A stretch of DNA of 61,984 bases, counting the filler. It is 5 parts of 5 records of this genome, joined end to end, with 100 filler letters (N's around TTAATTAATTAA, not from the genome) between each part and the next. Parts side by side here need not be neighbours in the genome. Positions count along the whole stretch, not along the records: positions 38,266 to 51,051 come from DRR723986_8793; 4 more parts are not named here. One strand, 5' to 3'. Shown here in pieces: positions 41,280 through 58,948 of this stretch. Below the pieces are notes generated by a model. That model saw only the letters and a list, made by a program, of their open reading frames with translations, was not told the origin of the DNA and searched no databases. Each line of letters opens with the position of its first letter. The first letter of the stretch is position 1. Position numbers and translations under genes: made by a program.

Positions 41280-41717
41280 CTAGCCCAGAAAGCTCTTGAG
41301 CATCCAAACTGTTTTTTCGTGCACTTGAATTCTCGCAATCATGAGATCTTCCGTTTCGGAATCTTCGTCCTCACCAGCTTGGTTACGGGCGGCACGCAAG
41401 TCCGCCAGCAGAGTTTCATTGACAGCGATCAAGTGCCGAACCATTTCGTCGGCGGAGGCATCTTCGGCAATTTCGTCGATCGAAGCGAGCTTTGCCAAAT
41501 TGGAAAGCCCACCTGGGGCAAAGCCTCCTTTGGCTCGAATTCGCTCGGCCACTTCGTCAACAGCGACGAACAATTCGTTGTACTGCTGCTCAAATGCATC
41601 GTGCAAGGAGAAGAACGACGGCCCACGGACGTTCCAGTGGCAGATATGTGTTTGGCCAATCAATGCATACTTGTCGGCGACTACTTTTCGCAATAAGTCG
41701 ATAAGTTTGCTGCTCAT
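41280..41717 (-). CDS. dps: Dps family DNA-protection / ferritin-like protein
   Basis: HWNVRGPSFFSLHDAFE, DEVAERIR and HEKTVWML motifs. Confidence 0.95.
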   Translation of the reverse strand: MSSKLIDLLRKVVADKYALIGQTHICHWNVRGPSFFSLHDAFEQQYNELFVAVDEVAERIRAKGGFAPGGLSNLAKLASIDEIAEDASADEMVRHLIAVNETLLADLRAARNQAGEDEDSETEDLMIARIQVHEKTVWMLKSFLG

Positions 41718-41837
41718 AGCAAAAGTCCTCTTTTCTCTTTGAATTCTGCCCGTGCGGGGCGTCGTTGGGTCAGGTATGTGACGAGATTACGTGACTGTCC
41801 ATTACAGGAACGCTCTCGAATCGGGATTCCAATTAAG

Positions 41838-43787: not shown

Positions 43788-44170
43788 ATCGTGAGTCCTT
43801 ACAAAAAGTTGGAATCAACAGCGGACGATTGAAGAACCGATCGATACCATCGCATCTAACGGCATCGGCATCGATGGAAGTGGGGAACCCCAGGTGAGAA
43901 GAGGGCAATCTGTCACCCTGCTTTCGCGATTTACGCTCGACAGGATGCTGAGATCCGAGCGCCAATGCATCACGAATATTCGCTTGGCCATTTCGCTCGA
44001 GAGCTCCACAGCCAGGGGCTTAGCATTCGGGGTACGTTAAACGACCGAGCCACACACCCAACGCTGGTGCAATGATAAATCAAGGCCCAGTAGCGCTACG
44101 ATGTGTGGCTGGAAAACACAAGCGATCCTTGGGTGCCATTTGTGAGGCCCCGGAATCGATTTCAACCAAC

Positions 44171-44566
44171 TTAGGCTGGCGGGTTGTAATAATACGTGTT
44201 GTTGGTGATCTTCCCGTTCTTCCACGTGATGATCTGGACCTGCGACAACTTGGTGGTTTTGCCGTCGTTGGTGTCGTACTTGAAATCGTACTCAGCCAAT
44301 GTGACGCCATTTCCATTGCCATCGTCAGAAGCAACACCGATCGAGCCGATGTTACCGCCGTGGTACGCCGTCACGCTCTTAAGGAATTCGGTTTCGTAGT
44401 CAACAACAGCTTGCTTGCTGTCGAACGTACGACCGTCGCCTTCGAGCTGCGTGTACTCATTGTCGTCGAAGTACTCATTCATGACTTCAACGAACTCACC
44501 CTTTTCAACAACGCGTGAAACGAATTCTTTGGTTTGGTCTAGTAGTTTGCTCTCTGGTGCACTCAT
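44171..44566 (-). CDS. SnoaL/NTF2-like protein
   Basis: Start MSAPES at 44566; EYFDD...QLE and QIITWKNGKI...YYY pattern; strongly biased codon usage. Confidence 0.72.
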   Translation of the reverse strand: MSAPESKLLDQTKEFVSRVVEKGEFVEVMNEYFDDNEYTQLEGDGRTFDSKQAVVDYETEFLKSVTAYHGGNIGSIGVASDDGNGNGVTLAEYDFKYDTNDGKTTKLSQVQIITWKNGKITNNTYYYNPPA

Positions 44567-45257
44567 TTGACTGTCTCTGAAAAAGTGGTTAACAAAACTT
44601 TGCAAAAGATCCAACGCCGCAGCACACTGCATTGAGGCTGGAACAATTGGGGATAACCCCGCCTTACTGATCAGTTGGCTCTGAAAGAACGGACGAAGTT
44701 GTATTCGCAAGTCTTACGTTCGGAAGTCCACGAACACGAAAATTTGGTAGGTTTGCCGCAAAAACCGCGGGAAGCCGCAGCGAGAAGCTCAAAAACATCG
44801 ACCTTTGGGTGGCACGGAAACGTTAACAGTGCGGTCCAGCGTTAGGTCAATTCCATGACGCTGAGTCGGTGCTGCGACTGAAGGCGGTTGCCTCCCTCGT
44901 ATATCTGAGTTGCTCACCAACTGATCTTGGGAATTGCAGACCACCAGTGACGATGTCCATCGCGCTAACGCCTCATCTAGTGTGTCGGCGAATGCTGGCG
45001 CAGCGTGTTCCTATTCCGCTGGGCATGCGTCTTCGTTCAATTCTCCACGAGTTCTCTGCTTCGGGCTCGACTTCCCCAAGGCCGACGTTCGTGAGCAAAA
45101 TAAAGCGTAAAACTTGATGCCAATTGGCGCATTGATCGCAACTGACCGGCATCTACTGGGGTAGAACGATGAATTCTGCAAGCGACGCAACCTGCCTTCG
45201 CCTCACGACCAACCTGCCACGCAATCTTCCACAATTTCTCCCCAGGCTGATTTAACC

Positions 45258-48200
45258 ATGCCCGCTCAGCACACCCAATTGTTGCCCTTGATCATGTTCG
45301 CAGCGGTTCTCGTTTCCGCATCGCCGACGTCTGGCCAGGAGGTGACGGAGACTCAGTACTCGAACCTGGCGCCCGTCAAGGGTCCTATCGTCGATGCAAA
45401 ATCGACATTGGCTGTCGGCAAGCTCAAATTGCCGGCCGATGGCAATTGGGAAGTCAAAAGCAGCTCCCACGAAACGTCCGAACTTTACTTGACGCCACAA
45501 ACGACGCTGGCCGTGAAGCGGATTGGTCGCCGAATGCTCCGCGCGGAAAAAGACAAGCAGACTCAGCAGGGGCAGTGGATTCTGAACACCGTCTATTGGG
45601 AAGCCCGAAAATATGCTCGGGACCATCAGGGCAGGGGCCCGGCCAAAATCGATGATCTGAAGAATTCCAACGAGTATCTCATCAAGAACTGGGGGCGGTC
45701 GCCCTACAGTTCACGCCAATTGGCCGCTTATCGCGATGGACAACTCGACGGCCCGTTTAGGTTCTTGATTCCGAACGTAGAGTTTGATTTCGTGACCGAG
45801 GAGGGCAACCGCCGAGCAGATTTTCAAGTCTTGGAGGCCAACCGCAAACCACTGGCCATTGAACTGAGACCGTACGTTGAGGACGGAAAGCACTGGGTCA
45901 TCTATACCGACGGTCAACGCGAACGCCGTGAGCCTGATCCAGCACTCCTTGAGAAGTATGACTTGGCAATTCGCCCAGTCCTCACCAAGGATATGATTGC
46001 CGCGGAGAACGCTCCAGTAATCGAGCATCATGTTGTCATGGTTTGCAGCGAGTTGCCCGACGAGCCGATCAAAATCACCTTGCACAACCCGATTCTCCGT
46101 GAAGAGCGCAAGGTGTCGTGGAACCTCCGAAACGCACAAGTGCTCCCCACTGGCGATGATGATCTTCAGAAAAGCCTGCTGAATAGTAGGAAGTATGCTT
46201 GGCGTCCGATGATCGAGACCGGCGGCGGTGCAATCCTAGAGACATGGTTGAGCGCCAAACCAGAGGCTCGAAACAATCAACCACGCAGAACGACGTCCGC
46301 ATTTTCGGTACTCGGCGGCCGAGCGGCCATTGAAGAGACTCTGCAAATGCAGAACCTCATTGCAGCTACCGCCCAGGGAGAGGCGAAGGTTGCAATCGCA
46401 GACATTGCGGGCGTTGAAGTCAAGTCGCACCCCTTTGAAAAGATGTTGCGTGGCAACCCAGGTGGCAGGCTGCCGCTGGCCAACTTTACGCCTCACGATC
46501 GTTTCTTTCTGTACGTCGGACAGCCAAGTGCAATCGTACCGCTGATGGATTCAGGAGCTGGATTCATTGCCGATGCAGGTGCGATCGCTACCGGCAACCG
46601 TCTCGAGTACCAACTGGCAAAACGCTATCTCGGACGACTGGGACTGGACCAAAATCTAGTCAGAACTCTCCTGCAATCCGAGGTGATGGAAGAATTCACC
46701 GTCTCGGCACCAGATCTTTTGTTGATCGACGGAACTGACATTACGATCGTCGCCCGTGTCAGGCAGGCAGGCTTGCTAAGCACACTAATTGGCCTAAGTG
46801 AAGGAGCGGTGCACAAACGCGGAACAGCCAACGGCGATGCGTACTGGTCACTGCAAGGAGACGTGCTAATTGCCAGCACCGCTGAGTCTGAACTTAAGAG
46901 CGTGCTCGACTTGATCGAGAACGACGGCGAAGGCTCGTTGGGGCAGAGTGCCGAGTTTCGATATATGCTGACGAAGTTGCCTGTGGAGAGGGATACGCAG
47001 TTCTACGCATATTTTTCGGATCCCTTTATCCGCCGCCTTGTTGGTCCCGAAGTCAAACTGAAGCAGCGGCGCCGCTTGATCGCAAAAGCGCAGCTTGAAC
47101 GCACCACTGCACTAGGACTACTGAGCAAGCTACAAGATGGCGATGCGACGTCGATTGACTACCTTGCGAAAGCGGACCTGATTCCGAAGACCTGGGCGGA
47201 TGATCTGAGCATCGACTCTGACGGACGCGTGGCGAGTGAACAATGGGGTACTCTGGAGCGGATGCGAACGCTGCAACAAGTCGAATTGACGCACGTCACC
47301 GAGAGCGAACACCAGGCCTACCAGAACTACGTGAATAACTACTCGCGTTTCTGGCGGCAGTTCTTTGACCCGATTGCTATTCGCTTGTCCAAATCTGAAG
47401 ATCAAGAGTACGAGCTTACCACTTTCATACTGCCGCTGATCGACAGTTCCATTTATGAAGGGCTTCGCTCGTTTGTCGCCCATGCCGATGGTGGAAAGAC
47501 ACTGCGAGTGCCTACCATTGAGCCGCGGCCCGTGATGAACCTTTCCCTAAACTTGCGTGAAGACGCGTGGACCAATATAGCAGCCGAATTCTCGACTTTC
47601 TTCTCGACGTACTCAGGTGTAAGCCCCGCAATACTAGACGACCTGGGCAATGGAGTGCACCTGGCGATCCACGATGCCGATCCTGTGCTCGTCGTCGGCA
47701 GCGGCGATGTCTTAGGGGCTTTCGGCAGCGACCTTACAACTGCTAATGAGATGATGGCGCTCCCGGTCATCATGTCTGTCCTGACACGCCCTTGCACCAT
47801 CTTGATTGAGACTCAGAATCCCGAGCAGACGGCTCGCTATCTGAGATTATCAGCCTCCGGCGGTGGTGGGACACGAGATTCACGGTGGTTTCAATCGGCC
47901 TTCTACCAGATCGAAGATCGTGATCAATGGGCATGGACCGTTGACATGTTGGGTATGGCAAAGCTCCGCTTCGGTGTTGAGGTCAAAGGCGACTTTCTGG
48001 TCATTCGAAACATTCCATGGAATAAGGATGAAGAGATCGTTTCGGCAGAAAAGGCACAGCTCAATGGCGCGGAACTTGTAGTTCACCCAGGCGCATGCGA
48101 TCTGCAGCTTCCCAGCCTATACGCTGCAGCAGCCGACACGAATCGCCAAAGCGTGCTTAGCAGCCTAGCCAGGCTGTACCCTATCCTCCTTGCTCATCCT

Positions 48201-48482
48201 GAATTGTCCGTAGAGCAAGCCATCGAAAAGCACCGTCAGTTGTTTGGTTTCGCACCGAAGAAACACGCTACTGACGCTTGGCACTGGGATGGGCAGGTTG
48301 TCCGAAGTCGCGATTTTGGCATCGCAAATCAGCCTAAGCAACCTGCCTACAATCCGGAGAAGCCATTCGGGCTGTTGCAACGCATTGATTCCGCGAAACT
48401 CAACATGCAGTTTGAAGACGATGGGCTTCGCAGCCAAATCATGTGGACAGTTCGTCCGAAGCAAGACACAACTAGCAATTAA
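45258..48482 (+). CDS. Large exported hypothetical protein (1074 aa)
   Basis: Long uninterrupted ORF with a Sec-type signal peptide; no catalytic motif recognised. Confidence 0.85.
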   Translation: MPAQHTQLLPLIMFAAVLVSASPTSGQEVTETQYSNLAPVKGPIVDAKSTLAVGKLKLPADGNWEVKSSSHETSELYLTPQTTLAVKRIGRRMLRAEKDKQTQQGQWILNTVYWEARKYARDHQGRGPAKIDDLKNSNEYLIKNWGRSPYSSRQLAAYRDGQLDGPFRFLIPNVEFDFVTEEGNRRADFQVLEANRKPLAIELRPYVEDGKHWVIYTDGQRERREPDPALLEKYDLAIRPVLTKDMIAAENAPVIEHHVVMVCSELPDEPIKITLHNPILREERKVSWNLRNAQVLPTGDDDLQKSLLNSRKYAWRPMIETGGGAILETWLSAKPEARNNQPRRTTSAFSVLGGRAAIEETLQMQNLIAATAQGEAKVAIADIAGVEVKSHPFEKMLRGNPGGRLPLANFTPHDRFFLYVGQPSAIVPLMDSGAGFIADAGAIATGNRLEYQLAKRYLGRLGLDQNLVRTLLQSEVMEEFTVSAPDLLLIDGTDITIVARVRQAGLLSTLIGLSEGAVHKRGTANGDAYWSLQGDVLIASTAESELKSVLDLIENDGEGSLGQSAEFRYMLTKLPVERDTQFYAYFSDPFIRRLVGPEVKLKQRRRLIAKAQLERTTALGLLSKLQDGDATSIDYLAKADLIPKTWADDLSIDSDGRVASEQWGTLERMRTLQQVELTHVTESEHQAYQNYVNNYSRFWRQFFDPIAIRLSKSEDQEYELTTFILPLIDSSIYEGLRSFVAHADGGKTLRVPTIEPRPVMNLSLNLREDAWTNIAAEFSTFFSTYSGVSPAILDDLGNGVHLAIHDADPVLVVGSGDVLGAFGSDLTTANEMMALPVIMSVLTRPCTILIETQNPEQTARYLRLSASGGGGTRDSRWFQSAFYQIEDRDQWAWTVDMLGMAKLRFGVEVKGDFLVIRNIPWNKDEEIVSAEKAQLNGAELVVHPGACDLQLPSLYAAAADTNRQSVLSSLARLYPILLAHPELSVEQAIEKHRQLFGFAPKKHATDAWHWDGQVVRSRDFGIANQPKQPAYNPEKPFGLLQRIDSAKLNMQFEDDGLRSQIMWTVRPKQDTTSN

Positions 48483-48512
48483 ATGCTAGCGGGTTGCGTT
48501 ACGCCAGCAGCG

Positions 48513-50357
48513 TCATTTGCGATGCACATAAACGTAATAAGCTCCGGCAATCTCATCACCGTTGGAATCTAGGAACGTTGCCTTCATTTCGATCGGGCCG
48601 TTGGATAGTGGCACGGTCGTTATGAAGGATTCTTGATCCGCTTCAGGCTCTAGCGTCAAACTATGCTGCACGCCAGGACTTTCTAGTTCGACTCGAGCAG
48701 CCTTGATCGGGAACGCCTTCCCTGCGGGAAAAGTGCCATCGGTGACTTTTGCGATCGGTAGGCTGGCGTCCAATTTGAGGCCTGACTCGCGCGGCCAACG
48801 CCGCAACTCCAACTCGTAATCACCGGCCCGATCAACGGAAAGATGCCACACTCCATTATTCTTCGTTCCATAGCGAACTTGAATCTGCTGATCGACAAAG
48901 ACATCCAGCCATTCGCAGGCGGTCAGCATCATGGGGTTCTCCGAGTCGTTACCAATGACCACCCTTTCCGGAACGTTGACTGTATCTTCGACGGAATCCC
49001 ACCACTGTTGTAAGTGATTGCGCAATTTCGCAACTACAGCAGGATGGTCAGCAGCGATATCGTGCTCTTGGTGCGGGTCCTCAGCGACATTGTATAGTTC
49101 GCGATTCTCCAGGAATCTCCAGTGCTTCCAAAGAACGCCAGCACCGTCACGGCTAGGAATTGCAGGATTGCCGTCAGTGTACTTTACTTTGAACATGGGC
49201 ATGCGACTGTAGTTGATAACCAACATGCGGTCGTCAAAGGCTTGCGTCTCGCCAGCGAAAAGTGGCACTAGGCTATTGCCATCCAACTGCTGAGGCACGT
49301 TGGCGATGCCTGCCATGTCAGTAAGAGTCGGCATGAGATCTTGCACTTGAGTAAGTTGACTGATGGCTCTTGGCTGGCTTACTGCCTCAGGTCCGGCAGG
49401 CCAGCGGATGAAACACGGCACACGATGACCGCCCTCCCAAAGCTGAGTTTTCTTGCCTCGCATTCCAGCGTTGAAGTAGTCATGCCCCATCGTGCTACCG
49501 TTGTCGGTTAGAAAAACTACGATAGTGTTCTCAAACAACCCCGAGTCCCGGAGAAACTCATCCAACTTGCCTACGTTTTCGTCGATGTTGGCTCCCATGG
49601 CAAGAAAGCTGACCAGATCGTCAACCTTCTGTTGCTTCAGGTGGCGGACCACGTCTGGATTTGCGTCAATTGCATCTCGAATGCCAGCCCGATACTTGTC
49701 AGGTACAAACCATGGCCAGTGAGCCGCATTGAGTGCGATGTAGGTAAAGAACGGTCGCTGATCATCCTGCTGCATCCAACGGTTTGCTTCGCGAAAGAAG
49801 ACATCCGTGCAGTAACCTCCTTCATACTTCTGCCGACGGTCGTTGTGGATGTAAGTATCGTCAAAATAGTCGTTATCCCAGAAGTCCGGGACGCTGTTTA
49901 TGTGCGACGACGGAAACCAAAGTGTTTCCTCGAACCCGCGATCAGAGGGACGGTAAGGGTAGTTGTCGCCCAAGTGCCACTTACCGAACAAACCCGTGCG
50001 ATAGCCAGCTTGCTGAAACACGTCCGCAAGCGTCTTCATGTCCGCCTTGAGCAGCGTTCTTCCGCTACTCACATTGCTGGCCCGATTGCGAAATGCATCA
50101 ACACCCGTCATCAGTTGCCCACGCGTAGGAGTACACATTGGTGCAACGTGAAAATCGGTCAAACGGATTGCCTGTGCCGCGAGCGCATCAATGTTGGGCG
50201 TGTTGGTGATGGGATTGCCATTACAGGAGAACTCGCCGTACCCCTGGTCGTCGGTCATGACCACCACAATATTCGGCCTGTCCGCGGCTCGGGCTTGGCC
50301 GAATAAGAACACGAAAAAGCACCCGATTGAAAGAAGTCTACTGAGTCGATTCACCAT
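48513..50357 (-). CDS. Arylsulfatase (formylglycine-dependent), exported
   Basis: RPNIVVVMTDDQGYG, CTPTR (CxPxR), GKWHLG and WEGGHRVP motifs; signal peptide. Confidence 0.95.
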   Translation of the reverse strand: MVNRLSRLLSIGCFFVFLFGQARAADRPNIVVVMTDDQGYGEFSCNGNPITNTPNIDALAAQAIRLTDFHVAPMCTPTRGQLMTGVDAFRNRASNVSSGRTLLKADMKTLADVFQQAGYRTGLFGKWHLGDNYPYRPSDRGFEETLWFPSSHINSVPDFWDNDYFDDTYIHNDRRQKYEGGYCTDVFFREANRWMQQDDQRPFFTYIALNAAHWPWFVPDKYRAGIRDAIDANPDVVRHLKQQKVDDLVSFLAMGANIDENVGKLDEFLRDSGLFENTIVVFLTDNGSTMGHDYFNAGMRGKKTQLWEGGHRVPCFIRWPAGPEAVSQPRAISQLTQVQDLMPTLTDMAGIANVPQQLDGNSLVPLFAGETQAFDDRMLVINYSRMPMFKVKYTDGNPAIPSRDGAGVLWKHWRFLENRELYNVAEDPHQEHDIAADHPAVVAKLRNHLQQWWDSVEDTVNVPERVVIGNDSENPMMLTACEWLDVFVDQQIQVRYGTKNNGVWHLSVDRAGDYELELRRWPRESGLKLDASLPIAKVTDGTFPAGKAFPIKAARVELESPGVQHSLTLEPEADQESFITTVPLSNGPIEMKATFLDSNGDEIAGAYYVYVHRK

Positions 50358-50464
50358 TGTCCCCTGCGCTTATCTTCGTTGATCCATCGGCAAGCGGAAC
50401 ATTCTAACGCGTGAGCGATCAACGCGGTTGCATCGCAAGGAGTGTTGTCGTGCCACCAACGCGC

Positions 50465-50500
50465 AAAAAACGGCCCTGGAAAATCGGATTCCCAGGGCCG
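50465..50500 (-). terminator. Rho-independent terminator for the minus-strand HMA gene
   Basis: CGGCCCTGG...CCAGGGCCG stem with A6 on its left, which is a U tract on the minus strand. Confidence 0.8.
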
Positions 50501-50547
50501 CTGATGTTTTGAACGACGGTTAGTCGTTTGAAATATGCTACGTCTAA

Positions 50548-50901
50548 CTACTCAAACGAGTAGTCCGCTAGGTGAGAATTGGTCTCCGCATATTTGGCAA
50601 TCTCTGCCTTGTAGTCAACGCTTGGATCAGTCACCTTGAAAGTACACCGCAGATTAGCTGGGTCTGCATTAATCTCTTTGAGACCAGCAATCTTGGACAA
50701 ATCGCCTCGGACCGAGACGACACAGGACGCTCAGTGCATGTTCGGAACTTTGAGGCTCACAAAGGTGCCTTCGACTTCGCTATCAGGATTGTCTGGGGAA
50801 GCCGAGGAAGTGGGCATGCTGGCAGGTTCACCGCACCCAACAAATCCGCAGCTCATCAGCGCGACCGCTCCGGCGGCCACAAAGCGTGTGCTTCGTTTCA
50901 T
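50548..50901 (-). CDS. HMA-like lipoprotein with in-frame UGA (MH-U-AS-C), probable selenoprotein, 117 aa
   Basis: GGAG RBS, lipobox FVGC, then TFVSLKVPNMH-TGA-ASCVVSVRGDLSKIAGLKEINADPANLRCTFKV...DYSFE-TAG. The UGA sits at the first Cys of the HMA MxCxxC motif. Confidence 0.8.
50701..50721 (-). promoter_or_regulatory. Candidate bacterial SECIS hairpin
   Basis: Minus strand GUCGUCUC-GGUCC-GAGGCGAU, starting 9 nt after the UGA, with a G-initiated apical loop. Confidence 0.68.
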
Positions 50902-51051
50902 GATTCGATCTCCAAGTGTGAAAAAACGTTGACTACAGCAATAGTATTCGTCTTTCAAGCAAGGTTACAAGCACGATTTTGGGCCAATTCCCATCGGTGG
51001 CACATTTCGGGCAGTATTTTGTTGACTAGAGCGTTTCCAGTTCGGATGTAG

Positions 51052-51151
51052 NNNNNNNNNNNNNNNNNNNNNNNNNNNNNNNNNNNNNNNNNNNNTTAAT
51101 TAATTAANNNNNNNNNNNNNNNNNNNNNNNNNNNNNNNNNNNNNNNNNNNN
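51052..51151. other. Artificial contig linker
   Basis: N run + TTAATTAATTAA + N run. Confidence 0.98.
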
Positions 51152-51592
51152 GAAACATTCGATCCCTGGCACCTGCCGCTGCTCAACACCCTGATCCTGC
51201 TGTGCTCCGGCACGACGGTCACTTGGGCACACCATGCGCTGCTGCATAATGACCGTGATGGCCTGAAGTGGGGCCTGACCCTTACGGTTCTGCTGGGTGT
51301 TCTCTTCACCATCTGCCAGGTCTACGAATACATGCACGCTGCGTTCGATTTCGGCGGCAACATCTACGGCGCGACCTTCTTCATGGCGACCGGTTTCCAC
51401 GGTTTCCACGTTATCGTCGGCACCATCTTCCTGGCCGTCTGCCTGTTCCGGGCACTGGCTGGTCAGTTCACCGTCGAGAAGCACTTCGGTTTCGAAGCCG
51501 CCGCATGGTACTGGCACTTCGTTGACGTCGTCTGGCTGTTCCTGTTCGTCTCCATCTACATTTGGGGCGCAGGCACACCGGCCGCTCACTAG
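51152..51592 (+). CDS. coxC: Cytochrome c oxidase subunit III, 3' part
   Basis: [23 protein letters not shown] and [16 protein letters not shown] motifs. Confidence 0.95.
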
Positions 51593-51615
51593 GATCGCGC
51601 CAAACCGGCACGAGC

Positions 51616-51648
51616 AACGCCCGATCCGGCCACCGGATCGGGCGTTTT
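51616..51648 (+). terminator. Terminator after coxC
   Basis: AACGCCCGATCCGG-CCA-CCGGATCGGGCGTT followed by Ts. Confidence 0.8.
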
Positions 51649-51675
51649 CATTTCAGCTGAGGCTTGAGGCACATC

Positions 51676-52068
51676 ATGGAAGACAAGGCGCATTTTCCAC
51701 CGGTCAATCCGGTTTCCGCAGGCCTGTCGGGCAAGTGTCCGCGCTGCGGCCAGGGGAAGCTCTTCGACGGTTTCCTGAGCGTCAAGAAATCCTGCATGGC
51801 CTGCGGGCTCGACTACTCTTTCGCCGACAGTGGTGACGGCCCGGCGGTTTTCGTCATCATGATCGTCGGATTTATCGTGGTCGGTCTGGTGCTCTTCGTC
51901 GAACTCTCCTACCAGCCGCCGATCTGGGTACACCTGGTCCTCTGGCTACCGCTGACGATCCTGCTGGCCGGCGGAGTGCTTCGACCGCTGAAAGGCCTCA
52001 TGATTGCGCTTCAGTTCCGGCACAAGGCTGCCGAAGGTCAACTGGACACCGGCAAGGACGACAATTGA
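51676..52068 (+). CDS. DUF983 family protein
   Basis: CPRCGQGKLF...CMACG...DSGDGPA...PLKG motifs. Confidence 0.9.
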   Translation: MEDKAHFPPVNPVSAGLSGKCPRCGQGKLFDGFLSVKKSCMACGLDYSFADSGDGPAVFVIMIVGFIVVGLVLFVELSYQPPIWVHLVLWLPLTILLAGGVLRPLKGLMIALQFRHKAAEGQLDTGKDDN

Positions 52069-52095
52069 CCGGGCAGGTCCCGGGAAGACAATCTC

Positions 52096-52857
52096 ATGCG
52101 TAAACTCGTTATCCCGACACTCGCCGCCATCGCGGCTCTGGTGGTTCTGCTCAATCTCGGTTTCTGGCAGCTCGACCGCCTGGCCTGGAAAGAAAACCTC
52201 ATCGAACAGGTGGAAGCCGGTGTTTCGACCCCGCCGGAAACAGCACCCGAACCTGGGGCCTGGGGCGACCTTGCCCCCTCTGACGACTATAGCCATGTCA
52301 GGCTCACCGGACGTTTCCTGGAAGGGGCGGTCTTCTATTACACCGCGCTGACTGATCCGGTCGGGCCAGTAAGCGGGCCCGGGGTGATGGTTTATGCACC
52401 TTTCGAAACGGATCAGCAGTGGATCGTTCTGGTCAACCGCGGTTTCCTGCCACAAGGGCTCGACAAGGCTTCGCGCGAAAAGGCAATCACGCCGCCTGAT
52501 GGTGCCTGGGAGCTGACTGGACTTTTGCGGCTGAGTGAAAAACCGAACTGGACAACGCCGGAACCCGGTCGGGAAGATCGTATCTGGTTCGCACGTGATA
52601 CGGATGCCATGGCAGCAGAACTGGGCCTCGATCCCGCCAGGCTGGCTCCCTTCAGCATAGATCTCGACGCTTCCTTCACGCCGCCGTCCGGTCTGCCGCA
52701 GGCGGGGGAGACCATCGTTCATTTCAAGAACGACCACCTCGGCTATGCGCTGACCTGGTTCGGTCTGGCGGCAACGCTGATCGGTGTCTACCTGACTTAC
52801 GCGGCAAGTATCCTTTGGCCGCGCAAACGGCAGGCAGGCGAAACATCGACCAAGTAG
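52096..52857 (+). CDS. surf1: SURF1 family cytochrome c oxidase assembly protein
   Basis: LGFWQLDRLAWK, LVNRGF and NDHLGYALTWFGL motifs. Confidence 0.95.
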   Translation: MRKLVIPTLAAIAALVVLLNLGFWQLDRLAWKENLIEQVEAGVSTPPETAPEPGAWGDLAPSDDYSHVRLTGRFLEGAVFYYTALTDPVGPVSGPGVMVYAPFETDQQWIVLVNRGFLPQGLDKASREKAITPPDGAWELTGLLRLSEKPNWTTPEPGREDRIWFARDTDAMAAELGLDPARLAPFSIDLDASFTPPSGLPQAGETIVHFKNDHLGYALTWFGLAATLIGVYLTYAASILWPRKRQAGETSTK

Positions 52858-53068
52858 GTGGTGCTGGTGGCCTCGTGACACGAAGGAACTTGGCTCCGGA
52901 GAGGCAGGAGAACCAAGGCTCTCGGTCGTCGTCGTGGCCAAGCGAAGCGCGAGCCGGGATCGGGAAGCCACAGCTGTACTTTTGTCGGCAGGTAGGTTGA
53001 AAAGCCCTCGGCTCTCCGGTCACCGATCTCCGCGTTGCTGCGTCCGGGGTGACCTGTTGAGAGGGGGC
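52858..53068 (+). ncRNA. Candidate structured RNA of unknown family (multi-stem with pseudoknot)
   Basis: Nested complementary segments with G-U pairs consistent only on the plus strand; folded by eye, see findings. Confidence 0.45.
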
Positions 53069-53072
53069 GATC

Positions 53073-53096
53073 AAAAAAGGGCCCCGCAGGGCCCTT
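53073..53096 (-). terminator. Terminator for the peroxiredoxin gene, possibly bidirectional
   Basis: AAAAAAGGGCCC-CGCA-GGGCCCTT. Confidence 0.75.
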
Positions 53097-53126
53097 CATC
53101 ATTTCTCTTGCAAGCTTGTAAACAGC

Positions 53127-53615
53127 TTAGCCGAGTGCTTCCAGGATTGCGGCGGCACCGGACTTTACGGCTTCGCCCGGAGCGTCTTCAATCGCCAGGA
53201 AGGTGATCACGCCATCCTTGGCAATCAGCGCGAAACGCTGTGAGCGCAGGTGACCGAAGATCGGTGCCGGCCCAAGGCCGAGGCCTGCGGCTTCGACAAA
53301 GCCGGCAGCCGTGTCGGACAGGAACGTAATGCTGTCGCCGGCGCTGGAGGCTTTCTTCCAGGCGTCCATGACGAAGACATCGTTCACGGACAGGACAGCA
53401 ATGGTGTCGACACCCTTGTTCTTCAGCGTTTCCGCATGCTCGATGAAGCCCGGCAGGTGGTTCATGTGGCAGGTCGGGGTGAAGGCACCCGGCACGCCGA
53501 ACAGCACAACGGTTTTGCCGGATGTCAGCTCGCCGGTCGATATTTCGCCGGGGCCGTCCGCAGTCATGGTGTTGAACGTTGCCTCAGGAAGACGATCCCC
53601 AACAGAAAGTGTCAT
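53127..53615 (-). CDS. Peroxiredoxin (Prx5 type)
   Basis: VPGAFTPTCHMNHLPGF and SVNDVFVMDAW motifs. Confidence 0.95.
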   Translation of the reverse strand: MTLSVGDRLPEATFNTMTADGPGEISTGELTSGKTVVLFGVPGAFTPTCHMNHLPGFIEHAETLKNKGVDTIAVLSVNDVFVMDAWKKASSAGDSITFLSDTAAGFVEAAGLGLGPAPIFGHLRSQRFALIAKDGVITFLAIEDAPGEAVKSGAAAILEALG

Positions 53616-53746
53616 AGTGAATATCCCTTGATTGACCGGCTGCGGCGAAACGGCAGCCCCGCGACACAGATAGGGCTTTGTTGGCCATCCGTCGAGGGAA
53701 GTTGAGGCAAAAGCGGTTCGATGGGCAGAGCGGCAGGAAGCAGTTT

Positions 53747-54568
53747 TTATTTTACCCAGGCCGGATCAATGGGAAACAGCTGCTCGACCGCGCGACCGCC
53801 CGCAGTCAGCACAAGGCGCAGATCTGTGTCGGTCTCGGTTGTTTTCATGCCTTTGAGTGACAAACGCCAGAGCGTCTTTTCACCGCCTTGGCCGGCAGGT
53901 TTAGGCAGGCCGATATAGGAGCCTTCAGGGGCTGCTGCAAAAAGATCCGGCGTGGTGTCTTCAGGTGCCTGGACCTCGATCTCCACTGAATCGCCCGATG
54001 CCGACAGGGCTATCGCACTTATCTTCAGATCCGCGGACGACTGCGTGGCAGGCACGGCCTCGAGGTCTCGTAGGATCAGTGTCTGGGCAAGGCTGTCGGT
54101 CTGGTCATCCGGGGTCAGATCAAGCGTCAGGGAGGCCTCTCCGGGAACGCAGATCTCGTTGCAGATACCAAAGAAAACGTCCAGGGAAAGCGTCACGGCT
54201 TGACCGGGATTTTCAGGTTCGACCCGCAGCGGCAGAACAATGCCATTGTGATAGACGATTGATTCAGAAAAGCCGTCGTCATAGCGCTCCGGCGCAGGAT
54301 AGAGCACCTCGGTGGTCTTGATGTTTGCGCTTCCGGTCGTATCGATCTGGGGCGGAATTCCGGCTTCGCCCGGATAGCGCCAATAGGTGTGCCAGCCCGG
54401 TTCCAGAAGGAACTCCAGACCGGCTTCATAGTGGCCGTCCTTCATGGGCCCCGAGGCGATCAGCCTGACGGCGCCTCCCTGAACTTCCGTCCAGCCGGTC
54501 ATGGCGGCATGGGCGGATGGAGCAAAAACAAAAAGGGTGAGCGCAAGGGCAAGGACAGAGCGTTTCAT
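53747..54568 (-). CDS. DsbD N-terminal-domain-containing exported protein
   Basis: Signal peptide; PGWHTYWRYPGEAGIPP and GICNEICVP motifs. Confidence 0.88.
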   Translation of the reverse strand: MKRSVLALALTLFVFAPSAHAAMTGWTEVQGGAVRLIASGPMKDGHYEAGLEFLLEPGWHTYWRYPGEAGIPPQIDTTGSANIKTTEVLYPAPERYDDGFSESIVYHNGIVLPLRVEPENPGQAVTLSLDVFFGICNEICVPGEASLTLDLTPDDQTDSLAQTLILRDLEAVPATQSSADLKISAIALSASGDSVEIEVQAPEDTTPDLFAAAPEGSYIGLPKPAGQGGEKTLWRLSLKGMKTTETDTDLRLVLTAGGRAVEQLFPIDPAWVK

Positions 54569-54752
54569 GCCTTCTTTGCTACACGAGTTTCAGGCAAGCG
54601 TCATCGGCCAGACTGGGCAATCCAGGTCATATCCTTGTGACGCTGAAGTGAGCCGGTTGCCATTCGGCGAGCACAAACAGACATTAACAAAGCCCGGCAA
54701 AGGGGCTATGCTTTCCCTTGGGCAGAGAGCGTCAACAGAAAACGAGGTACGC

Positions 54753-55349
54753 ATGGCCGGATCCGCAGCAACAGATTCCCTTGAAGGTCAGTTTCTGATT
54801 GCGATGCCGGGCATGTCAGACAGCCGGTTCGAACATTCTGTGATTTATCTGTGCTCTCATTCGGACCAGGGCGCAATGGGCCTCGTGGTGAACCAGGTGG
54901 CCCGCCATCTGTCACTGGAAGAGCTTCTGATTCAACTCGATATCGTCAACGACGATGGTGCCATTCGCCTGCCGTCGAAAGTCCGCGACATGAGCGTCCA
55001 CAAGGGCGGTCCGGTGGAGGTCGAACGCGGCTTCGTGCTGCATAGCGACGATTTCATGCTGAACCAGTCGACCCTTGCCATTGATAACGGCATCTGCCTG
55101 ACGGCAACACTGGAAATCCTGCGGGCGCTTGCGCAAGGGACCGGCCCCACCCAGGCCATGCTAGCCCTCGGTTATGCGGGCTGGGCTCCGGGGCAGCTTG
55201 AAAACGAAATCCAGGCCAATGGGTGGCTGACGGCTCCGGCCGATCCGGACATCCTGTTCGATCAGGCCTCCGACAAGAAATGGCATCGAGCGCTCGCCAG
55301 CATGGGTATCGACCCCGCCATGCTTTATGCCGATGCGGGGCACGCCTGA
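54753..55349 (+). CDS. YqgE/AlgH family protein
   Basis: FLIAMPGMSDSRF, GAMGLVVN, GGPVE..RGFVLHS and GYAGWAPGQLENE motifs. Confidence 0.93.
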   Translation: MAGSAATDSLEGQFLIAMPGMSDSRFEHSVIYLCSHSDQGAMGLVVNQVARHLSLEELLIQLDIVNDDGAIRLPSKVRDMSVHKGGPVEVERGFVLHSDDFMLNQSTLAIDNGICLTATLEILRALAQGTGPTQAMLALGYAGWAPGQLENEIQANGWLTAPADPDILFDQASDKKWHRALASMGIDPAMLYADAGHA

Positions 55350-55578
55350 CGGCGCTGACGTTACGGCCGGTTTCGCAAAACTTGTCTCTCCACGGTCATC
55401 ATTTTAGCCAAAAGCGACTTGCGCTTGAATGTTATGGCGCGTAAGTCGCATCAATGGCATGGTTTGTTTCAAATCTGCCGGAATTCAAGTAGGCTGATCC
55501 TTCTCGCATCAGAGGTCTGGCAAACAGGCAGGGGACGCGGGCGTCCCGCGACAAACAAAGCAAGAGGAACGTTGCGCG

Positions 55579-56985
55579 GTGAAATACATCAGTACGCGTG
55601 GTGAAGCACCAGTTCTGGAATTTTCCGATGTCCTGCTACAGGGGCTCGCACGCGACGGTGGACTTTATTTACCCGAAACCTGGCCGCAATTTGATGCCGA
55701 CACCATCGCGTCTTTCGCCGGTAAACCCTATCAGGATGTTGCCTTCGAGGTTATTTCGCCCTTTGTGGCCGGCGCCATTCCCGAAGACGATCTGAAGTCC
55801 ATGATTGCAGAAGCCTATGATGGCTTCCGCCACCCGGCCGTGACGCCGCTTGTCCAGACCGGACCGAACACTTTCATCCTCGAACTCTTCCACGGCCCGA
55901 CGCTGGCGTTCAAGGACGTCGCGATGCAGCTGCTTGGCCGGATGATGGACTATGTCCTGACCGAGCGCGGCCTGCGCGCGACCATTGTCGGCGCAACTTC
56001 CGGAGACACTGGCGGCGCCGCCATTGAGGCCTTCCGCGGGCGCGAGCGCACCGATATCTTCATCCTGTTTCCCGACGGACGCGTTTCCAGCGTGCAGCGC
56101 CGCCAGATGACGACCCCGGCGGAAAAGAACGTTCATGCCCTGGCACTAAACGGCGACTTTGATGATTGCCAGGCCATCGTCAAGGGCATGTTCAACCATT
56201 TCTCATTCCGCGACAGGGTTGCCCTTTCCGGCGTCAATTCGATCAACTGGGCGCGGATCCTGGCGCAGATCGTCTATTATTTCGTCGCAGGCGCTGCCCT
56301 TGGCGCGCCGCATCGCAAGATCTCCTTCACGGTGCCGACCGGCAACTTCGGTGATATTTTCGCCGGCTATGCCGCCATGCAGATGGGGCTTCCCGTCGAG
56401 AAGCTGGTGGTGGCGACCAATGTCAACGACATCCTGGCGCGGACACTCAAGACCGGGCGTTATGAAAAGCGCGGCGTGACGCCGACCATTTCTCCGTCCA
56501 TGGACATCCAGGTGTCCTCCAATTTCGAGCGACTTCTGGCGGAGGTCTGCGGACGCGATGGCGCGGCAGTCCGGCGCATGATGAACCAGTTGAGCCAGTC
56601 CGGCAGTTTCGAGATCGAGGAAGGCCCGCTCCGCGCCATGCGCGCGGTCTTCGGCGCAGGCCGCTGCAACGAGGAAGAAACGGCATCGACCATTGCCGAA
56701 CTGTGGAACGAGGCAGGCTATTTGCTGGACCCGCACACGGCAATCGGTGTCCATGTGGCGAAAGACCATGATAACGGTGAGACACCGATGGTGGTGTTGG
56801 GCACGGCGCATCCGGCCAAATTCCCGGATGCGGTGGAAAGGGCTTCAGGAAACCGGCCGGAGCTGCCGGAAAACCTGAAGGATATGATGAGTGCGGAGGA
56901 GCGCCAGCAGGTTCTGGCGGCGGATCAGGGCGTGGTGGAGCGATACATCGAAGATCACGCCCGGGCCGTTACTGCTGGGGTGTGA
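55579..56985 (+). CDS. thrC: Threonine synthase
   Basis: YISTRG, ELFHGPTLAFKD, ATSGDTG, NSINWAR and VPTGNFG motifs. Confidence 0.96.
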   Translation: MKYISTRGEAPVLEFSDVLLQGLARDGGLYLPETWPQFDADTIASFAGKPYQDVAFEVISPFVAGAIPEDDLKSMIAEAYDGFRHPAVTPLVQTGPNTFILELFHGPTLAFKDVAMQLLGRMMDYVLTERGLRATIVGATSGDTGGAAIEAFRGRERTDIFILFPDGRVSSVQRRQMTTPAEKNVHALALNGDFDDCQAIVKGMFNHFSFRDRVALSGVNSINWARILAQIVYYFVAGAALGAPHRKISFTVPTGNFGDIFAGYAAMQMGLPVEKLVVATNVNDILARTLKTGRYEKRGVTPTISPSMDIQVSSNFERLLAEVCGRDGAAVRRMMNQLSQSGSFEIEEGPLRAMRAVFGAGRCNEEETASTIAELWNEAGYLLDPHTAIGVHVAKDHDNGETPMVVLGTAHPAKFPDAVERASGNRPELPENLKDMMSAEERQQVLAADQGVVERYIEDHARAVTAGV

Positions 56986-56989
56986 GCAT

Positions 56990-58279
56990 ATGAAAGTACA
57001 AACAACAATCCTCGATAACGGGATGACGGTCGTCACCGACCAGATGCCTCATCTGAAGACGGCGGCTCTTGGCGTGTGGGTGCGAACCGGATCCCGCGCG
57101 GAGAATGTGCACCAGAACGGGATAACCCATCTTCTGGAGCATATGGCCTTCAAGGGCACCAAGACCCGCACGGCGCGTGGCATCGCAGAAGAGATCGAGG
57201 CCGTCGGTGGTGAGCTGAACGCTTCCACAAGCATCGAACACACCAATTACTACGCGCGTATCCTGGCTGAGGACACGCCGCTTGCGGTCGATATTCTCGC
57301 TGACATCCTGCAGAATTCCTCATTCGATGCTCAGGAGCTGACGCGCGAACAACATGTGATCCTTCAGGAAATCGGCGCGGCAAACGACTCCCCCGACGAT
57401 CAGGCTTTCGATCTGTTCCAGGAAACCGCCTGGCCGGACCAGGCCATCGGACGGCCGATCCTCGGAACGCCGGAAACGGTACAGGGGTTCAACCGCGACG
57501 CACTCAACGCCTATCTCGCCGATCGCTACCGGGCACCCGACATGGTGCTGGCCGCTGCCGGCGCGGTTGATCATGAAGAGCTTGTCGCTCTTGCCCGTGA
57601 GAAGTTCGGTGGTTTCAACTCCGAGCCTGCAGCTCCCGAATCCGAAGCACGCTACCGTGGCGGCGAAACCCTTCGGCCGAAGGAACTTATGGAAGCACAG
57701 GTTCTGATCGGTTTCGAAGGCCGTCCCTACAAGTCCAAGGACTATTACGCCATCCAGATCCTGGCATCGGTCCTGGGCGGTGGGATGTCCTCGCGCCTGT
57801 TCCAGGAAATCCGCGAGAAGCACGGCCTTTGCTACGCCATCTACAGCTTCCACTGGGCGTTTTCCGATACCGGATTGTTCGGCCTGCATGCGGCCACCAG
57901 CCAGGAAGACCTGGCTGCGCTGATGCCGATGATCGTGGACGAACTGATCGCCGCCACCCAGACGATCACCGACGAGGAAGTCGCCCGCTCCAGGGCGCAG
58001 ATCCGCGCGGGACTGATGATGGCGCTGGAAAGCCCGGCAGCCCGCGCCGGACAGATTGCCCGTCAAATCCTCGTGCACAACCGCGTGCTCGATCCGGACG
58101 AGATTTCTTCGAAGATCGAAGCGGTGACAGCTGCTGATATCCGCAGGGTCGCGCACGAGACTTTCGTGGGCACGGTGCCGACCCTGACTGCGATCGGGCC
58201 GGTTGACGGTATCATGACTGCGGACGAACTCGCAGGACGGCTTCAGCAAAGCCCGGTCCTGCGGGCCGCATCCATGTAA
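56990..58279 (+). CDS. M16 family zinc peptidase
   Basis: HLLEHMAFKGT (HxxEH) and GGGMSSRLFQEIRE; ATG at 56990. Confidence 0.95.
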   Translation: MKVQTTILDNGMTVVTDQMPHLKTAALGVWVRTGSRAENVHQNGITHLLEHMAFKGTKTRTARGIAEEIEAVGGELNASTSIEHTNYYARILAEDTPLAVDILADILQNSSFDAQELTREQHVILQEIGAANDSPDDQAFDLFQETAWPDQAIGRPILGTPETVQGFNRDALNAYLADRYRAPDMVLAAAGAVDHEELVALAREKFGGFNSEPAAPESEARYRGGETLRPKELMEAQVLIGFEGRPYKSKDYYAIQILASVLGGGMSSRLFQEIREKHGLCYAIYSFHWAFSDTGLFGLHAATSQEDLAALMPMIVDELIAATQTITDEEVARSRAQIRAGLMMALESPAARAGQIARQILVHNRVLDPDEISSKIEAVTAADIRRVAHETFVGTVPTLTAIGPVDGIMTADELAGRLQQSPVLRAASM

Positions 58280-58308
58280 GTCGGACAGAACAAGGCGGAG
58301 AGTGGGGC

Positions 58309-58947: not shown

Positions 58948-58948
58948 C

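Follow-up and report, generated by a model that had tools for sequence, protein, structure and literature searches.

The HMA fold is used by metal-binding proteins that include the copper chaperones of the CopZ/Atx1 type and MerP (TIGR02052; PDB 1osd, 1afi), a soluble periplasmic protein that binds Hg(II). CopZ is cytoplasmic and uses Cys, and the Sec of the cation-transporting P-type ATPase selenoprotein belongs to the HMA domain at the N-terminus of that pump. Selenoproteins of the HMA type with a UxxC or UxxU motif are already catalogued. Rows of the GOS 2008 table (PMC2398784) list this ATPase, with a UxxC motif, and a 'Mercuric transport protein MerP' selenoprotein represented by two sequences; rows for the ATPase also stand in review tables of 2022 and 2026. 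Within NCBIfam, NF041115 ('UxxU_metal_bind') covers a metal-binding (seleno)protein, a small HMA-type domain with Sec in the CxxC metal loop, and NF045683 covers a MerT/CopZ fusion-like heavy metal transport selenoprotein, whose HMA-like module also carries Sec. The gene described here is a further member of this rare known kind; the entries in NCBIfam and in these rows of the published tables lower its novelty; the preliminary description had cautioned that Sec-containing MerP-like proteins might be known in other lineages. The decoding signal of such genes in bacteria, the SECIS, is in general a stem-loop that directly follows the UGA within the CDS (PMC9312934).

The stretch of DNA analysed (the window; 61,984 nucleotides) was at first treated as one contig, which is wrong: it consists of five contigs joined by N44-TTAATTAATTAA-N44 spacers. 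The gene lies on the contig at 38266-51051 (12.8 kb), with only 150 bases upstream of it before the contig end. On the minus strand, an ORF starts at the ATG 50901-50899 and reaches a TGA at 50733-50731 after ...SLKVPNMH. Past this TGA, the frame stays open as initially proposed, with 60 further sense codons (ASCVVSVRGDL...ADYSFE) before the TAG at 50550-50548; the read-through product is thus 117 residues long, U being residue 57. For the ribosome-binding site and lipobox claimed for the N-terminus, candidate motifs are present: a GGAG 8 nt before the ATG, and FVGC at residues 20-23. A terminator had also been proposed 3' of the TAG, and folding bears it out: the hairpin formed by 50469-50502, with a U-run after it, reaches -26.5 kcal/mol (z -4.98; 0/200 shuffles as good). 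The consensus scan called no terminator 3' of the gene and found no promoter; on our reading, the alternative 8-9-bp stem has a 12-nt loop, and the scan is limited to loops of 3-8. The features are collected in Table 1.

Table 1. Features of the predicted selenoprotein gene, in window coordinates.
Feature	Position	Strand	Basis
GGAG, Shine-Dalgarno-like motif, 8 nt 5' of ATG	50910..50913	(-)	read from sequence
Full CDS, predicted 117-aa selenoprotein precursor	50548..50901, stop included	(-)	frame; Pfam HMA across the TGA; full-length homologues of 108-156 aa
Lipoprotein signal peptide (predicted), residues 1-23: MKRSTR n-region, hydrophobic core, FVGC lipobox, Cys23	50833..50901	(-)	sequence motifs
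Pro/Ser/Asp-rich linker, residues 24-45	50767..50832	(-)	low pLDDT; homologues differ in its length and sequence
HMA-fold domain, residues 46-117, beta-alpha-beta-beta-alpha-beta	50551..50766	(-)	AlphaFold2 and Foldseek
UGA codon 57, predicted Sec, first position of M-x-U-x-x-C	50731..50733	(-)	aligns with Cys in Cys forms
Cys60 codon, predicted second ligand of the UxxC motif	50722..50724	(-)	invariant in alignments A2 and A4
SECIS-type hairpin (putative): 9-bp stem 50721-50713 with 50709-50701, GUC loop 50712-50710	50701..50721	(-)	fold and covariation
Family-conserved 7-bp core of the hairpin	50719-50713 with 50709-50703	(-)	begins 11 nt after UGA
Cys86 codon, third conserved Cys, start of strand beta-3	50644..50646	(-)	invariant in alignment A2
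Intrinsic-terminator-like hairpin and U-run, 46 nt 3' of TAG	50465..50502	(-)	folding

The predicted protein consists of a signal peptide, a linker and a compact C-terminal domain. In the predicted signal peptide, alignments A2 and A4 show no variation at G22 and C23, and a loose pattern finds a lipobox-like motif upstream in 43/54 TGA forms. Phe at position -3 falls outside the classical lipobox consensus, and FVGC has Phe there. The AlphaFold2 model gives block pLDDT values of 52-55 for residues 1-40, 87 for the 41-50 block and 96-98 from residue 51, and places no secondary structure before residue 46; the elements that follow are strand 46-51, helix 58-69, strands 74-80 and 85-90, and helix 97-107. 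An HMA domain had been claimed, and Pfam HMA (PF00403) recognizes it above threshold when C stands in for U57 (36.6 bits, E 5.9e-9, cut-off 24.8), in a match over residues 50-98 that spans the TGA. Specifically, the metal loop M55-H-U57-A-S-C60 sits at the beta-1/alpha-1 junction and has the M-x-C-x-x-C layout of the HMA fold, and its Met55 is invariant in alignments A2 and A4. A third Cys, at position 86, is present in 51/52 TGA forms long enough to score. Compared against the PDB with Foldseek, the model matches MerP best (1osd_A; E 3e-4, target TM-score 0.77, 74 columns), and the other top matches are HMA domains of Cu/Zn ATPases; target TM-scores for HMA domains range from 0.68 to 0.83.

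Homologues carry either Cys or TGA at position 57, and both flanks are conserved in the alignments, which is the pattern that the preliminary description had looked for. A word-indexed protein search at near length found no homologue; an exhaustive HMMER search found them, with 200 protein matches at E<=1e-3. These include full-length lipoprotein homologues with CxxC in place of UxxC, and fragments whose start or end coincides with the Sec site. Two matches (P0005 and P0037) are printed with W at the Sec position, which we take to mean that the gene caller translated TGA as Trp. The expectation that standard callers truncate such genes holds in public data: P0021, 61% identical, terminates at ...FVSLKVPNMH, precisely where the ORF of the window stops, and it and P0031 are fragments annotated 'hypothetical protein'. 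Only Cys forms are named HMA or CopZ, one of them 'copper chaperone CopZ' by its source, and the named Cys-form members are labelled Pirellulaceae. A 7-row alignment pattern that demanded Cys accordingly returned Cys forms only, and 104 metagenome stretches fitted a pattern specific for TGA. Of the 80 loci listed for the latter, 70 are family members in which TGA holds the corresponding position and a tail of about 61 codons is conserved, and ten are chance matches. Identity of the TGA relatives to the domain of the window protein is 30-68%, and at least 53 unique metagenome variants of the family were found. The family is sparse in a phylum-wide sample (11/401 planctomycete genomes at E<=1e-8), a count for the sample that does not imply absence elsewhere.

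The part of the gene 3' of the TGA is not decaying. Its median dN/dS is 0.173 (317 pairs, 33 sequences), and 0.172 after the first ten codons, which hold the hairpin, are dropped, which denotes purifying selection; between the window and its nearest relatives, pN and pS of the tail are about 0.24 and 0.62. Moreover, UGA is an ordinary stop elsewhere, as originally stated: it ends 2/8 long ORFs on the gene's own contig, those of the antiporter (39889) and the sulfatase (48513), and it is the terminal stop of 10/50 family genes whose end is seen. The codon at 50731-50733 is covered by 7 listed contig pieces from 4 runs in 4 studies, with no other letter among the differences listed, 9 further differences lying outside those listed; the contigs of these runs thus speak against a TGC/TGT-to-TGA error, which had been raised as a concern. 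Bases near the TGA do vary among runs. One change, at 50644 from A to G (+ strand), falls in the Cys86 codon and, read from the codon, is synonymous (TGT to TGC). No RNA dataset is among the sequencing runs listed for the gene.

Next to the TGA, the family conserves a stem-loop that may act as its SECIS. In the fdhF-type SECIS of E. coli, a minimal 17-nt stem-loop stands 11 nt from the UGA, and a G and a U of its loop contact SelB. The window hairpin resembles it in the G-U of the apical loop and in a conserved stem that starts 11 nt past the UGA, whereas the two sequences are unrelated. Across 54 unique sequences, 26 cells are changed on both sides of the stem, compared with 6.2 in shuffles, and the covariation score is 0.243 compared with 0.110 (0/500 shuffles reach either value), although these controls overstate the significance because the sequences are related and coding. 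Sliding the frame by -1 gives 29 both-side-changed cells too, but only 50.7% of its cells are paired. Pair 42-52 is CG in 37 sequences and UA in 17, pair 43-51 is UA in 39, UG in 11 and GC in 4, and neither is ever unpaired. RNAalifold likewise predicts the same core as the sole helix in 90 columns. The TGA forms keep on average 6.24 of the seven core pairs (-10.7 kcal/mol) and the window all seven (-11.7 kcal/mol for its hairpin), whereas nine Cys forms keep 1.56 (-3.8 kcal/mol); the hairpin is absent from these nine Cys forms. Support for a SECIS comes only from this family comparison: taken alone, the hairpin of the window lacks significance (z -1.27, 19/200 shuffles as good), as does the 57-nt single-sequence fold of the region after the UGA (z -0.59), and an Rfam search at a permissive E-value returned three chance-level matches and no SECIS family. 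Together, an in-frame UGA, purifying selection 3' of it and a covarying 3' stem-loop, three features by which bacterial selenoproteins are judged, are all found here, and it is comparative evidence that shows the recoding signals.

We compared the window protein with each of the described systems. It scores 18.5 bits against NF041115 (cut-off 95), in a weak match over residues 47-77, and it differs in having UxxC and not UxxU, a putative lipoprotein signal and a linker, a distinct C-terminal half (...ETNSHLADY...) and the third conserved Cys. Against NF045683 the score is 18.3 bits (cut-off 375), and the MerT membrane domain was not found in the window protein, in which only the HMA domain was. 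MerP shares with it an MxCxxC loop and, as predicted for the window protein, an extracytoplasmic location, but is soluble whereas the window protein is predicted to be lipid-anchored; the TIGR02052 score is 24.6 bits (cut-off 92.55). The copper chaperones share the fold and the loop (13-21 bits against CopZ models, cut-offs 85-95); unlike CopZ, the window protein is predicted to carry Sec and a signal peptide that ends in a lipobox. Finally, the P-type ATPase carries its domain as the cytoplasmic N-terminus of a membrane pump, in contrast to the free-standing, exported 117-aa lipoprotein predicted here. Three family members were tested, and none reaches any NCBIfam cut-off. The parts of the review tables searched contain no PF00403 or lipoprotein row; tables S8/S9 of PMC4807772, which give selenoprotein candidates of alga-associated planctomycetes, may list members.

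The host lineage bears on whether the UGA can be decoded. Eight family-carrying planctomycete genomes encode, each above its family cut-off, SelA (8/8), SelD (8/8) and SelB (7/8), together with tRNA-Sec in 7/8 (68-80 bits; ARAGORN: tRNA-SeC, anticodon tca). One MAG (G004) has the TGA form, and tRNA-Sec was not found in it. For the gene's contig, the planctomycete-like source proposed earlier agrees with its planctomycete matches. Its genes include, by Pfam, a SpoIIE phosphatase, a Na/H exchanger, a ferritin-like protein, a Rieske-TPP enzyme and a sulfatase. The nearest genome examined (G001) matches a neighbouring contig of the window (contig 5) at 98% over 10,833 bases, and in this genome, 99% complete, no tRNA-Sec, SelA or SelD was found above cut-off. 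Since the contigs were binned together, the 12.8-kb contig could be a horizontally acquired island in a G001-like bacterium, carrying a true selenoprotein-family gene that is silent or truncated here: lacking Sec machinery, such a host would stop at UGA57 and make a 56-residue lipopeptide. We regard this as very unlikely. The gene's contig has a GC content of 53.5%, compared with 59-62.5% for the other four, and G001 matches it at only 64-65% identity, inside one conserved TPP-enzyme gene. G001 has no counterpart of its 1074-aa protein, which 26/401 planctomycete genomes do have (best 36% identity, E 6e-175), 7/8 long contig ORFs scanned with Pfam contain no integrase or transposase, and both the hairpin, with 7/7 pairs, and the tail are intact. 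The lack of Sec machinery in G001 is discounted because that genome matches the neighbouring contig and not the contig of the gene. Thus, the gene's contig is foreign to the genome that matches its neighbours, with mis-binning as the simpler reading; in practical terms, it does not come from the genome of its window neighbours.

Other explanations place the anomaly in the codon itself. The locus could be a pseudogene in which a nonsense mutation arose recently, or its TGA could be a TGC/TGT that was wrongly sequenced or assembled, and 60 extra sense codons are only mildly unlikely in random sequence of this composition (estimated at about 5%); however, this account is hardly credible given the retention of TGA in the 70 listed relatives, the purifying selection on the tail and the uniform letters at the codon among the listed differences. 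Near-cognate tRNAs can suppress UGA, and the two homologues printed with W might suggest that near-cognate or reassigned decoding inserts Cys, Trp or Gly at the codon in place of Sec. Against this, TGA serves as a normal stop on the contig and in the family genes, which argues against reassignment; the position is that of a metal-ligand Cys and alternates with Cys only; the covarying hairpin lies at SECIS distance and is specific to TGA forms; and the family-carrying genomes possess the Sec machinery. Decoding as another residue is thus highly improbable. A further alternative is compatible with Sec and concerns function: U57-x-x-C60, perhaps with C86, could be the redox centre of a periplasmic selenenylsulfide oxidoreductase. 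Most prokaryotic UxxC selenoproteins in the review tables, as far as their rows go, are redox proteins, and HMA domains do not usually have a third conserved Cys. Metal-resistance genes are not found nearby either: no mer or cop genes occur in the window near the gene or among the recurrent neighbours of family loci, with no merT, merA or merR on the contig or among those neighbours and no metal-resistance operon in the neighbour analysis. Nevertheless, the fold and the M-x-C-x-x-C loop are of the metallochaperone type, every top PDB match is a metal-binding HMA domain with MerP first, Met55 is invariant and the catalogued HMA-type selenoproteins are annotated as metal-binding, which makes a redox role rather unlikely.

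We consider it very probable that the locus is a genuine gene for a Sec-encoding HMA lipoprotein. In such a gene, UGA57 would be decoded as Sec to give an intact 117-residue selenoprotein precursor, with the hairpin, whose apical loop has G-U, acting as a bacterial SECIS that recruits SelB with Sec-tRNA(Sec); SelB binding is proposed here by analogy with the established bacterial mechanism. The predicted signal peptide, with its lipobox FVG-C23, would be expected to direct export, lipidation on Cys23 and tethering to the membrane on the extracytoplasmic side through the disordered linker of about 22 residues, as judged from these motifs. The selenolate and the thiolate of the loop could then bind a soft metal ion, Cu(I) or else Hg(II)/Ag(I)/Cd(II), and the protein might serve as a periplasmic metal buffer or chaperone; this metal and this role we favour by a narrow measure of confidence.

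A broader proposal, which we put forward tentatively and hold to be possible but doubtful, is that the window gene belongs to a distinct, abundant family of extracytoplasmic Sec lipoproteins that curated selenoprotein resources do not model. Members of such a family may use three chalcogen ligands, U57, C60 and C86, and their SECIS may be encoded in the codons of helix alpha-1 and co-evolve with the protein sequence, its 5' arm specifying Ala-Ala-Ser or Val-Val-Ser and its 3' arm Arg-Gly or Arg-Ser. Their function could differ from those of both MerP and CopZ, and could be that of a periplasmic selenolate trap or of a Cu(I) donor to exported enzymes.

Public gene calls split family genes into 'hypothetical protein' fragments, and inventories of metal handling and of selenium use consequently undercount them, an undercount that affects marine and alga-associated planctomycetes. 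With 54 variants and compensatory changes, the family provides an unusually clean natural data set for the bacterial SECIS, in which the same bases would encode both an RNA structure and an alpha-helix. It also enlarges the small group of selenoproteins in which Sec is thought to be a metal ligand and not a redox residue, with a member predicted to be lipid-anchored and extracytoplasmic. As a minor observation on gene order, a sulfatase neighbours 13/70 family loci; this link is weak and is confined to two subclades, in the larger of which the sulfatase lies 1.2-1.3 kb away.

The minus-strand ORF is very probably a genuine but concealed selenoprotein gene, one of a sizeable family whose members are split by annotation. 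Translation bore out the preliminary description, which had the frame open beyond the TGA, and gives a read-through product of 117 residues, the 57th being U. Scored with C in place of U, this product matches the Pfam HMA model (PF00403) at 36.6 bits (E 5.9e-9, cut-off 24.8) over residues 50–98 and thus across the TGA, which takes the place of the first Cys of the M-x-C-x-x-C loop (M55-H-U57-A-S-C60), as had been proposed. The N-terminus consists of MKRSTR, a hydrophobic stretch and FVGC, of which G22 and C23 show no variation in the alignments of homologues; with the upstream GGAG, candidates for both the RBS and the lipobox described earlier are in place. The proposed terminator is supported by folding, which gives a strong hairpin and U-run 46 nt past the TAG (-26.5 kcal/mol, z -4.98, none of 200 shuffles as good), but a consensus terminator scan made no call there.

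Features of the window and of the contig carrying the probable selenoprotein gene
Feature	Position	Strand	Remark
Spacers, N44-TTAATTAATTAA-N44	10381-10480, 29194-29293, 38166-38265, 51052-51151		four
Contig of the gene	38266-51051		12,786 bases, GC 53.5%
ORF start, ATG	50901	minus	8 nt downstream of GGAG
In-frame TGA	50733-50731	minus	directly after ...FVSLKVPNMH
Hairpin after the TGA	50701-50721	minus	7/7 pairs and a further two outside them, -11.7 kcal/mol
End of read-through frame, TAG	50550-50548	minus	60 open codons beyond TGA
Sulfatase	48513-50357	minus	190 nt downstream of selenoprotein gene, same strand
Rieske-TPP enzyme fusion	41838-43787	minus	649-aa ORF
Other genes on the contig			SpoIIE-type phosphatase, Na/H exchanger, ferritin-like (Dps-type) protein, two without Pfam match
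Family loci with sulfatase nearby			L054, L055, L057, L062, L066, L087, L089, L090, L104, L109, L113, L117, L128

An AlphaFold2 run with a 16-row alignment gave a mean pLDDT of 81.5; by ten-residue blocks, the values are 52–55 for residues 1–40 (signal peptide and linker), 87 for residues 41–50 and 96–98 from residue 51. The predicted elements are strands at 46–51, 74–80 and 85–90, helices at 58–69 and 97–107, and a short final strand, with U57 at the N-terminus of helix α1. In a Foldseek search of the PDB the top match is MerP of Ralstonia metallidurans (1osd_A), with E 3e-4 and a target TM-score of 0.77 over 74 columns; HMA domains of copper/zinc ATPases and copper chaperones come next. Against the NCBIfam models the window protein falls far short of the cut-offs, scoring 24.6 bits for MerP (cut-off 92.55), 13–21 for the CopZ models (85–95), 18.5 for NF041115 UxxU (95) and 18.3 for NF045683 (375); two Cys-form relatives likewise score far under the cut-offs.

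For the TGA, positions 50300–51051 were compared with contigs assembled from four public runs, each of a different study, rather than with raw reads. Seven contig pieces listed span the triplet, and they include both close matches to the window, nearly identical to it, and more diverged relatives; no other letter at 50731–50733 occurs among the differences listed, while 50720, 50728–50730 and 50761 vary nearby. The best-matching run may be the source sample itself.

An exhaustive HMMER search returned 200 matches at E<=1e-3, 12 of which reach E<=1e-10, including full-length lipoprotein homologues of 108–156 aa with CxxC. Two homologues, P0005 (in both domains) and P0037, carry W at the first Cys position, which we take for a TGA that gene calling rendered as Trp. 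That standard callers would truncate such genes is exemplified by P0021, an N-terminal fragment, 61% identical, that ends ...FVSLKVPNMH exactly like the window ORF; eight C-terminal fragments start just past the motif. P0005 (197 aa) contains two tandem HMA domains, each reading MTWGGC, and probably represents a double selenoprotein. Searching planctomycete genomes in all six frames revealed a single in-frame TGA at the Cys site alongside Cys paralogues, e.g. loci L029 (G004) and L033 (G003), and also at the first ligand position of more distant HMA lipoproteins (L037 in G272, L039 in G257), one of which has U-x-x-x-C spacing (MTUEDSC) in place of UxxC.

Additionally, metagenomes were scanned with a degenerate pattern in which TGA was fixed at the Cys position. 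It hit 104 stretches, and of the 80 loci listed 70 are clear family members on translation, the other ten being chance matches with short frames. Homologues with either Cys or UGA at position 57 and conservation on both flanks, the check that had been suggested, thus exist in both kinds. Specifically, family members share the sequence ...L-x-[VL]-P-[NE]-M-x-U-x-x-C-A... and, after it, a conserved tail ~61 codons long, in many cases with ...Y-x-I-Q at its end; the metagenome members listed range from 68% (L117, L087) down to 30% (L060) identity to the window domain. Together with the window they yield 54 unique 90-nt segments, in which UGGC is the motif of 40 and the window's UASC is seen once; of the 52 forms long enough to score, 51 have a third Cys equivalent to C86. 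The family genes terminate in TAG (19), TAA (21) or TGA (10), and four run off the contig end; the antiporter and sulfatase genes on the window contig end in TGA as well, in agreement with the preliminary description, and recoding is therefore position-specific. The median dN/dS of the tail is 0.173 (317 unsaturated pairs, 33 sequences of the same tail length), or 0.172 without its first 10 codons, and between the window and its nearest relatives pN is ~0.24 and pS ~0.62; by these substitution estimates, the tail after the TGA is under purifying selection. Relatives notable for a longer frame or a shifted hairpin register are L068, L081, L083, L094, L102, L110, L126, L092, L095 and L033 (G003:C32); in some relatives the Sec-HMA domain sits at the C-terminal end of a far longer open frame, and more than 150 aa lie upstream of it in 8 of the 54 unique forms, often joined via a Lys/Gly-rich linker.

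The 54 segments align without gaps (TGA at columns 25–27), and columns 39–45 pair with 49–55 around a G-U-N loop, the helix starting 11 nt past the UGA. Counted with one extra outer pair and against shuffles that ignore the relatedness of the sequences, 78.2% of cells are paired (70.0% in shuffles), 26 are changed on both sides (6.2) and the covariation score is 0.243 (0.110), with 0/500 shuffles reaching either of the latter two values. A control slid by -1 gives 29 both-side-changed cells, yet only 50.7% pairing. Pair 42–52 is C-G in 37 segments and U-A in 17, and pair 43–51 is U-A in 39, U-G in 11 and G-C in 4, neither being unpaired in any; five sequences of the CARSVKNAL subclade break the register and, by eye, have a 6-bp stem of their own that is offset by one base. 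RNAalifold, given no structure, found columns 40–43 with 51–54 as the sole helix in 90 columns, with compensatory changes at all four pairs. In these compensations a silent substitution in one arm goes together with an amino-acid replacement in the opposite arm, such as GCC->GCU (Ala) with GGC->AGC (Gly->Ser) and UCG->GCC (Ser->Ala) with CGA->CGC (Arg), the pattern expected of RNA structure written into coding sequence. Of the 7 pairs, TGA forms retain 6.24, at a mean of -10.7 kcal/mol over 30 nt, versus 1.56 pairs and -3.8 kcal/mol in nine unique segments of Cys forms taken from genome loci; by this comparison the hairpin belongs specifically to the TGA forms. The window hairpin by itself is not significant (z -1.27; 57-nt fold, z -0.59), and no Rfam family matched the region. 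The 5' arm of the window hairpin reads GUC-GUC (Val-Val) versus the family's GCC-GCC (Ala-Ala), the sole case among the 54 sequences (columns 37–57), with the helix kept through a U-G wobble and a U-A pair added; the sequence of helix α1 appears to evolve in concert with the SECIS.

Sec machinery was sought in eight planctomycete genomes with family members (G002, G003, G004, G005, G116, G133, G257, G272). In seven, tRNA-Sec scored 68–80 bits (cut-off 47) and was called tRNA-SeC with anticodon tca by ARAGORN; the best match in G004 is a tRNA-Ser. SelA and SelD exceed their cut-offs in all eight and SelB in seven, the G003 match being partial (209 bits). For alga-associated planctomycetes, PMC4807772 reports that two out of three genomes have Sec machinery as well as selenoproteins. 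In four of the eight genomes the SelD gene has its own single in-frame TGA (G257:C198, G116:C98, G133:C10, G272:C264), and SelD is probably itself a selenoprotein there.

The spacers show that the window consists of five concatenated contigs, and the other four have a GC content of 59–62.5%. G001, the nearest genome available for comparison (99% complete, 3 contigs), is 98% identical to the neighbouring contig 51152–61984 over all 10,833 bases. It has no DNA match to 48000–51045, matches of only 64–65% to 38266–48000, inside one TPP-enzyme gene, and neither the 1074-aa protein of the gene's contig nor any relative of the selenoprotein gene; tRNA-Sec, SelA and SelD were not found in it. Relatives of the 1074-aa protein occur in 26 of 401 planctomycete genomes sampled (best 36% identity, E 6e-175), the Cys-form relatives in named genomes all belong to Planctomycetota MAGs, and the named database members are labelled Pirellulaceae. 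The planctomycete-like setting first suggested is consistent with these relatives, and we conclude from sequence similarity that the contig is of planctomycete origin and foreign to a G001-like genome. It is most likely mis-binned, so the missing Sec machinery of G001 is uninformative on this gene.

As judged from these comparisons, UGA57 is shown to be a conserved sense position, with a co-evolving hairpin at SECIS distance, in a gene belonging to a lineage with Sec machinery. By the established bacterial mechanism, SelB with Sec-tRNA(Sec) would recognise the hairpin and insert Sec. The motifs suggest that the precursor would be exported, cut before Cys23 and lipidated, holding the HMA domain outside the cytoplasm on a flexible linker, where U57 and C60, perhaps with C86, could bind a soft metal ion. 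The usual strand order of the HMA-type fold is 4-1-3-2, by which C86 should lie near the metal loop. Fold and motif tip the balance modestly toward metal binding by the U57/C60 domain, and we hold a redox role in its stead to be rather improbable.

NCBIfam already has HMA-type selenoproteins, namely NF041115 (UxxU metal-binding) and NF045683 (MerT/CopZ fusion), and the tables of a 2022 and a 2026 review (PMC9312934, PMC13188914) have entries for an ATPase, for the NF041115 protein and for a MerT selenoprotein. "HMA" is absent from the main text of both, the main text of the 2026 review (PMC13188914) has no PF00403 row and no lipoprotein row, and PF00403, "heavy metal" and "HMA" are all absent from the BSepDB paper. 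In the literature searched on selenoproteins and heavy-metal-associated domains, Planctomycetes SECIS and Pirellul-, no account of the family was found. As to the novelty raised earlier, HMA-type selenoproteins as such are already known, and the window gene brings no new principle.

Sulfatase is the commonest neighbour in the 70 family loci (13 loci, two subclades); in 12 of these it follows the gene on the same strand, and in the larger subclade it is 1.2–1.3 kb off. DUF1501 proteins come second (8/70), and no mer or cop genes recur among the neighbours. Planctomycetes are described as rich in sulfatases in passages of PMC4807772, and we therefore treat the association as weak; it may reflect synteny or chance in sulfatase-rich genomes. 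In the Rieske-TPP fusion, a Rieske [2Fe-2S] domain (63 bits) at the N-terminus precedes a thiamine-pyrophosphate enzyme with all three of its domains, an architecture that looks unusual.
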